From a virus (Duplodnaviria > Heunggongvirae > Uroviricota > Caudoviricetes): 11,924 nt of DNA. Of this stretch, positions 4,773 through 5,812 are shown one piece after another (position 1 is the first letter of the stretch; each line of letters begins with the position of its first letter). Both the position numbers and the translations under genes were made by a program. The notes under the pieces were generated by a model. The model was not told the origin of the DNA and did no database searches. It was given only the letters and a program-made list of their open reading frames with translations. The DNA lies in IMG/VR virus record IMGVR_UViG_2526164647_000012. The stretch is one strand, 5' to 3'.

Positions 4773-5812
4773 ATGGGAAGACGAAGGAAAAATCCTGAAC
4801 ACGAAAAATTACCTCCAAATGTATACCCAAATAAATATAGTTATGTATGGAAACCAACATCCAGAGAATCTGTAACACTAACCGCCATCAAGGATGGTTT
4901 AGCTGCTTTATGGAAAAAGTATGAGGAAACTGTAAATAATCGCGATCGTGCAATGACATTCGGTCGCTTGTGGGAAAAATTCCTCGCCAGCGCCTATTAC
5001 AGTGACCTCAGTCCAAGAACACAAAAAGATTATCTGCAACATCAAAAAAAGTTGCTTGCCGTATTCGGTAAGGTGCCGGCAGATTCCATAAAACCAGAAC
5101 ACATCCGTCGATACATGGACAAGAGAGGGGAACAGAGTAAAACGCAAGCCAACCATGAAAAAAGCAGTATGTCCCGCGTTTACAGTTGGGGGTATGAGCG
5201 AGGGTACGTGAAGGCTAACCCATGTGCAGGTGTAAGTAAATTCAAGGCCAAAAACCGCGAACGATATGTAACCGACAAAGAATACCAGGCAGTATTAAGC
5301 GTTGCACCTCTTCCTGTTTTTATCGCAATGGAAATTGCCTATCTGTGTGCAGCGAGGGTTTCCGATGTGTTATCGCTGAAATGGGAGCAGATTGGAAACG
5401 ACGGGATCTTTATCCAGCAAGGGAAAACAGGAAAAAACAGATAAAAGCATGGAGTCCACGATTACAGGCGGCGATCGAAAAAGCAAAACAGTTACCAACA
5501 TCCGCCTATGTAATCAGCAATCAATACGGCAACCGATATATGTACAAAGGCTTTAACGAAATGTGGGTAGAAGCAAGAAATCGCGCAGGCAAAATTTCAG
5601 GTATTTTAACCGACTTCACCTTTCATGATCTGAAGGCGAAAGGAATTTCAGACTATGAAGGAAGCAGTCGGGATAAGCAACTTTTCTCTGGTCACAAAAC
5701 CGAGGGGCAAGTGCTAATCTATGACAGGAAGGTTAAAGTTTCACCGACACTTGATGTCCCGTTACCTGAAAATATTCCAAGAAAATATTCCAAGTGTGAT
5801 TTTTGTCACTGA
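4773..5812 (+). pseudogene. int: Lambdoid tyrosine integrase, frameshifted in an A6 run near 5431-5437
   Basis: N-terminal ORF MGRRRKNPEHEKLPPNVY... (lambda Int-like) ends at 5444; the C-terminal catalytic part continues in another frame to 5812; one extra A in GGAAAAAAC would restore a continuous frame; 3' end abuts the serU 3' end. Confidence 0.8.

Follow-up and report, generated by a model that had tools for sequence, protein, structure and literature searches.

The question raised by this locus is whether a prophage integrase of Shigella flexneri is broken in the bacterium or only in its deposited sequence. The window, the whole stretch of DNA analysed here (11,924 bp), is the complete contig AFGV01000049.1 of assembly GCA_000213675.2, a 2011 draft of S. 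flexneri K-218, a strain that PMC4924310 lists as SFL1496. Its integrase gene (4773–5812, plus strand), delimited by ORFs, translations, Pfam matches, an alignment with lambda Int and homologues, is assigned to the lambda-Int family of tyrosine recombinases and belongs to the remnant of a lambdoid prophage integrated at serU. The gene is divided between two reading frames at a run of six adenines (A6), where homologues have seven (A7).

As deposited, the upstream frame (ORF1) begins with an ATG at 4773 and extends to 5444, encoding 223 residues with the C terminus QQGKTGKNR and ending in a TAA stop codon at 5442–5444. The downstream frame (ORF2), at −1 relative to ORF1, stays open between 5345 and 5812, with a translation that includes KKQIKAWSPRLQ and KKQIKAWSPRLQAAIEK. 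The letters at 5430–5438 are GGAAAAAAC, within which the A6 run occupies 5432–5437 on the plus strand, just after the β-hairpin lysine of the GKTG motif, a residue that aligns with K235 of lambda Int. The interval 5421–5445 proposed for the frameshift from the sequence alone correctly encloses both the run and the stop codon, and its central claim, that the frames join if A6 is A7, is borne out: one A inserted at the run gives an uninterrupted 346-aa integrase, and homologues carry A7 at the exact position. In three closely related alleles of complete E. coli genomes (alignment A1), the A7 is the sole change near the site. Because intact homologues have A7 exactly there and the restored protein matches lambda Int and Pfam profiles across the junction, the split is confirmed as a true property of the deposited sequence and is not a chance pair of ORFs. 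The same 223-aa ORF1 product is on record from 31 contigs of several sources, and for the 83-aa alternative-start product of ORF2 no such protein is on record; it was the 90-aa form of ORF2 that led to contig AFGV01000049.1.

The restored 346-aa protein scores above the Pfam thresholds for Phage_integrase (PF00589, 43.7 bits, cut-off 27.1), Phage_int_M (PF22022, 27.4 bits, cut-off 27) and Phage_int_SAM_3 (PF14659, 24.8 bits, cut-off 22.6). The Phage_integrase match comprises residues 183–317 and runs across the junction; ORF1 alone reaches 24.8 bits for PF00589, under the cut-off, and covers profile positions 24–67 of 172 only. By HMMER alignment, residues 1–313 of the restored protein match residues 1–338 of lambda Int (PDB 1z1b) with E = 7e-13, so that the earlier naming of the gene as a prophage integrase stands. 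The gene is found at the prophage end, at the attachment-site tRNA, and in relatives lies immediately 3′ of a DUF4224 gene. By domain content, alignment and position, the gene belongs to the lambda-Int family of tyrosine recombinases.

Comparison with bacteriophage lambda Int (PDB 1z1b, 1z1g and 1ae9) extends this likeness to the MGRRR N-terminal arm-binding domain and to the motifs of the catalytic domain, with Arg I (ARVSD in the window, QRVGD in lambda), the hairpin lysine (QQGKTG, EQSKTG), the histidine (TFHD, TFHE) and the GHK motif all represented. As in lambda, the int gene follows a xis-like gene and abuts the attachment site at the prophage end. Sequence identity between the two proteins is nevertheless low, and the position of lambda Arg311 (HELR), the second catalytic arginine, is taken by a lysine (HDLK) in the window integrase. 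The targets also differ, with the window integrase directed to the 3′ end of the tRNA-Ser gene serU, whereas lambda attB lies between gal and bio, and a 13-nt repeat makes the C-terminal tail of the window integrase variable. The lysine at the Arg311 position occurs in the motif TFHDLKAKG (window 5610–5625), and the DNA here is identical in three aligned E. coli alleles. The putative catalytic tyrosine (LIYDRK), assigned by its spacing of nine residues past the GHK histidine, falls outside the HMMER alignment.

The tail repeat, GAAAATATTCCAA, is present in 2.1 tandem copies at 5768–5794 (plus strand), after the putative catalytic tyrosine, as found by TRF, alignment A1 and our catalogue of integrase tails. 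Its copy number varies from 1 to 4 across strains, and a neighbouring 10-nt segment, ATTCCAAGTA, is present or absent, giving integrases of 341, 345, 346, 358 and 360 aa, complete genomes among them (L001–L003, L035 and L068). The commonest form, of 341 aa, is labelled ‘frameshifted’ by RefSeq. The distance of the repeats from the tRNA-Ser att site is about 45–70 nt, and they could be arm-type sites for Int binding within the end of the coding sequence.

On the downstream side, 28 nt separate the integrase stop from serU, the attachment-site tRNA-Ser(CGA) gene (5840–5929, minus strand; ARAGORN, Rfam and the RefSeq annotation of the relatives L001–L003), with mtfA and a tRNA-Asn gene beyond. 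On the upstream side, intact relatives have the order dicB, DUF1482, exonuclease, DUF4224 (xis-like), int and serU. Of the DUF4224 gene, the window retains a 3′ remnant without the first approximately 20 codons (4631–4773, plus strand; BLAST break-points, L001 annotation and translation), and all DNA between xis and the nin/Q region has been deleted, with BLAST break-points placing the junction between the xis-like gene and nin/Q-side prophage DNA at about 4621–4633. The surviving nin/Q-side genes (832–4612, all on the minus strand), identified by gene calls with Pfam, RefSeq annotation and an Rfam sok match, comprise the Q antiterminator (832–1515), RusA (1512–1877), DUF968 (1878–2936), a hok/sok type I toxin–antitoxin locus (3384–3709; Rfam sok 118.9 bits and a HOK_GEF ORF) and a 140-aa ORF (4190–4612). 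Downstream of Q are four phage-borne tRNA genes (324–633, minus strand), reading Gly-TCC, Thr-TGT, Lys-TTT and a CAT anticodon; the last is called Met by ARAGORN, and the matching gene of the complete genome FDAARGOS_944 is annotated as tRNA-Ile by RefSeq. With its xis-like gene cut and its early region missing, the prophage is a remnant irrespective of the state of the integrase. The sequence-only reading took the length of the A-run to decide whether the prophage integrase is functional; it does settle the intactness of the ORF, though not the functioning of the prophage.

Genuine decay is found next to this remnant. A P4-type integrase gene of the yersiniabactin-island type (7158–8420), which adjoins the tRNA-Asn gene, has an ATA in place of its ATG start and a stop in place of W105, with no indel relative to an intact 420-aa copy, and is on these grounds a genuine pseudogene. 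Its stretch shows zero differences from the same-lineage assemblies L088–L091, and from about 8519 an IS3-family element truncates its island.

The check that the sequence-only reading had asked for, a comparison with the integrases of related strains, gave A7 and an intact ORF in the closest relatives. An intact 346-aa protein with the unusual tail of the window (P0006, source name S. flexneri) is encoded on five independent contigs (L088–L092), one of which is present in four SRA samples. All five have A7, and they have in common with the window the xis/nin deletion junction, the rare deletion of the 10-nt tail segment and the IS-bounded right end. They are other strains, K-218 itself not being among them, with 99.8–99.94% identity to the window over 2.2–6.3 kb, and across these lengths the indels that separate them from it are A7/A6 at 5432 and A7/A6 at 3842, with no others. 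For L090, L091 and L092, the two runs and a SNP at 4896 make up all the differences. At 4896, the window base is the state found in related integrase alleles of alignment A1, which leaves the window's own branch, relative to L090–L092, with two A-run contractions and zero substitutions in about 5 kb.

The second A6 run (3842–3847), recognized from pairwise differences, lies between hok/sok and the 140-aa ORF, outside the called genes of the window and also outside the genes annotated in the matching complete genome. It is A7 in FDAARGOS_944, in the public contig L015 and in all five same-lineage assemblies, and it is the sole indel between the window and FDAARGOS_944 over 4.6 kb. Five other comparable A/T runs of 7–8 nt (at 97, 243, 867, 1377 and 5044) equal the references in length, and the K-218 assembly is on this evidence without gross homopolymer error.

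We then considered how A6 is distributed among genomes at large. Across 5,426 complete RefSeq E. coli genomes, queries of 121 nt representing three local haplotypes did not find A6 as an exact match, although A6 combined with a further SNP close by could sit unseen in the 99.2% match band. One change from the A6 query were 600, 298 and 151 complete genomes for the respective haplotypes (about 1,050), and among the matches listed, 65 of 65 carry one extra base, that is, A7. Whole-gene A6 queries against the complete genomes had the same outcome. In IMG/VR contigs, by comparison, A6 occurs in 6 of 71 copies, which differs from the complete genomes with a Fisher p of 5e-8. The 75 full-length alleles include A6 on at least four haplotypes that are 2–25 nt apart, each with an A7 twin that is identical over 989 nt. 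This recurrence is homoplasic, a pattern that a systematic error would be expected to produce.

Assemblies bearing A6 include GCA_000268125.1, GCA_001283185.1, GCA_900016105.1, GCA_014331105.1 and GCA_964045155.1, and runs bearing it include SRR063724, SRR059930, SRR491126, SRR31555804 and SRR33279471. Two public contigs illustrate this scatter. L013 has the deletion context and both A6 runs of the window and L015 has one of the runs, and both contigs retain the 10-nt tail segment, so that they fall outside the clade that unites the window with the five A7 assemblies. With A6 distributed in this way over L013, L015 and the several haplotypes, real mutations would require several independent events or reversions with hardly any accompanying substitutions.

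The contigs with A6 also carry an excess of other homopolymer changes. In a 2.4-kb region from the xis-like gene to tRNA-Asn, further 1-nt homopolymer indels number six in 38.8 kb of A6 contigs, against three in 144 kb (p = 0.004), with the majority of A6 contigs having zero other indels across the region compared. Single-base deletions occur within the tRNA-Ser gene in L009 and L013 and within mtfA in L013; those of L013 are C5 to C4 changes at positions matching window 5863 and 6097. The deletions of the two contigs fall in C5 or G5 runs, and they look like homopolymer errors of those assemblies. In L015, three further A/T runs are under-called relative to both the window and the complete genome. 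We rejected L013 as an independent confirmation of A6, given its deletions in tRNA-Ser and mtfA and its position outside the clade of the window. Also rejected was the idea that the 223-aa ORF1 product, recurring on 31 contigs and several haplotypes, marks a real and possibly selected allele: the contigs concerned are enriched in homopolymer errors, and the lack of an exact A6 match in finished genomes speaks further against it.

Taken together, these comparisons make it probable that A6 is a homopolymer under-call in the K-218 draft, with A7 read as A6, and that the strain would encode the intact 346-aa protein. The true gene would then be an intact lambda-type tyrosine integrase next to serU, marking one border of a decayed lambdoid prophage. 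The choice between slippage and assembly error, which the sequence-only reading had left undecided, now falls in favour of assembly error, because the closest independent assemblies have A7, the contig holds a second A7-to-A6 discrepancy and finished genomes gave no exact A6; we infer that A6 most likely originated in sequencing or assembly rather than in the strain. Independent assemblies of the same lineage differ from the window by indels in run length only, and A6 turns up in drafts on unrelated haplotypes while having no exact match in finished genomes. In each of these respects the site resembles the homopolymer errors of flow-based and nanopore drafts: the window's only length discrepancies from its closest relatives are single bases in A7 runs, and A6 contigs have other indels, even in a tRNA gene. 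It differs from that class in that the other long runs of the window look correct. The literature searched did not yield the platform used for K-218 (GCA_000213675.2, AFGV), presumably pyrosequencing for this 2011 project. The alternative of a genuine, strain-specific slipped-strand deletion of A7 to A6, which would have inactivated the integrase of an already decayed prophage, is one we regard as rather unlikely. The 223-aa fragment would then retain Arg I, the hairpin lysine and the domains that bind arm and core sites, and, lacking the H-x-x-R/K motif, the histidine and the tyrosine, is predicted to be catalytically dead. The commonest spontaneous indel of real origin is likewise the loss of a single A from an A7 tract, and Shigella accumulates pseudogenes. 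As the prophage is already a remnant, its xis truncated and its early region gone, its integrase is probably under little selection; the adjacent P4-type integrase attests to real decay at the same locus, the comparable A/T runs of the contig have reference lengths, and an identical 223-aa product is known from 31 contigs of several sources. A deletion in the strain would nevertheless require the window branch to have lost two adenines from A-runs without a single substitution in about 5 kb, among closest relatives that are uniformly A7. It must also contend with the approximately 1,050 complete genomes that have these local haplotypes without exact A6, with the scatter of A6 over at least four haplotypes that all have A7 twins, and with its association with contigs bearing other homopolymer errors.

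A further possibility is that the A6 form is itself functional, through programmed −1 frameshifting or transcriptional slippage on A_AAA_AAC, or as a phase-variable on/off switch; to this we give very little credence. A slippery heptamer, A_AAA_AAC, is indeed present at 5432–5438 in the 0-frame X_XXY_YYZ register (codons GGA AAA AAC, 5430–5438). ORF2 lies in the required −1 frame, the 0-frame stop follows one codon on, the predicted frameshift product would match the A7 protein except at one residue (K to N), and both A6 and A7 occur on haplotypes identical over 989 nt. On the other side, no stable structure was found downstream of the heptamer at the usual spacing of 5–9 nt. The minimum free-energy fold of 5439–5518 gave z = −1.54, with 14 of 200 shuffles as stable and the main helix starting at about 22 nt, and Rfam returned no match at the integrase A-run. 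The two-ORF form is not conserved either, the homologues being single-ORF A7 genes and complete genomes containing no exact A6, and there is accordingly no sign of selective maintenance of A6. With neither downstream structure nor conservation, a programmed −1 frameshift at the integrase is unsupported. In E. coli, A_AAA_AAC promotes shifting poorly relative to A_AAA_AAG, and A7 is short for a phase-variable tract. The window holds two internal comparators for the integrase A-run, A_AAA_AAG motifs between orfA and orfB of one IS3-family element (10572–10578, plus strand) and of a second (9438–9444, minus strand). The integrase site resembles such IS3-family and dnaX-type −1 sites in having an in-register run of six adenines ahead of a −1-frame continuation, but its heptamer ends in C rather than G, has no nearby downstream stem-loop and sits in a shifted arrangement that is not conserved in homologues. 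Equally far-fetched, in our estimation, is a real and recurrently switching site, at which slippage would lock serU prophages in place or low-level recoding would tune integrase dosage. The occurrence of A6 on at least four haplotypes with A7 twins is compatible with recurrent switching; the lack of exact A6 in about 1,050 finished genomes is strongly against it.

With an under-call as the preferred reading, the integrase frameshift is an accurate description of the deposited sequence and most probably not a biological feature, and it matches the homopolymer-length errors that are well known from draft assemblies. EGK23024.1 and EGK23038.1, the split ‘integrase family’ proteins of this contig, and those of several other drafts, are probably not separate products, and such calls inflate the numbers of integrase pseudogenes counted in drafts of Shigella and E. 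coli. A genuine A6 would be just one further lesion in a remnant already without the start of its excisionase gene and without any of its early region. Biologically, little hangs on the choice between A6 and A7, and the importance of the distinction lies mainly in the quality of annotation.
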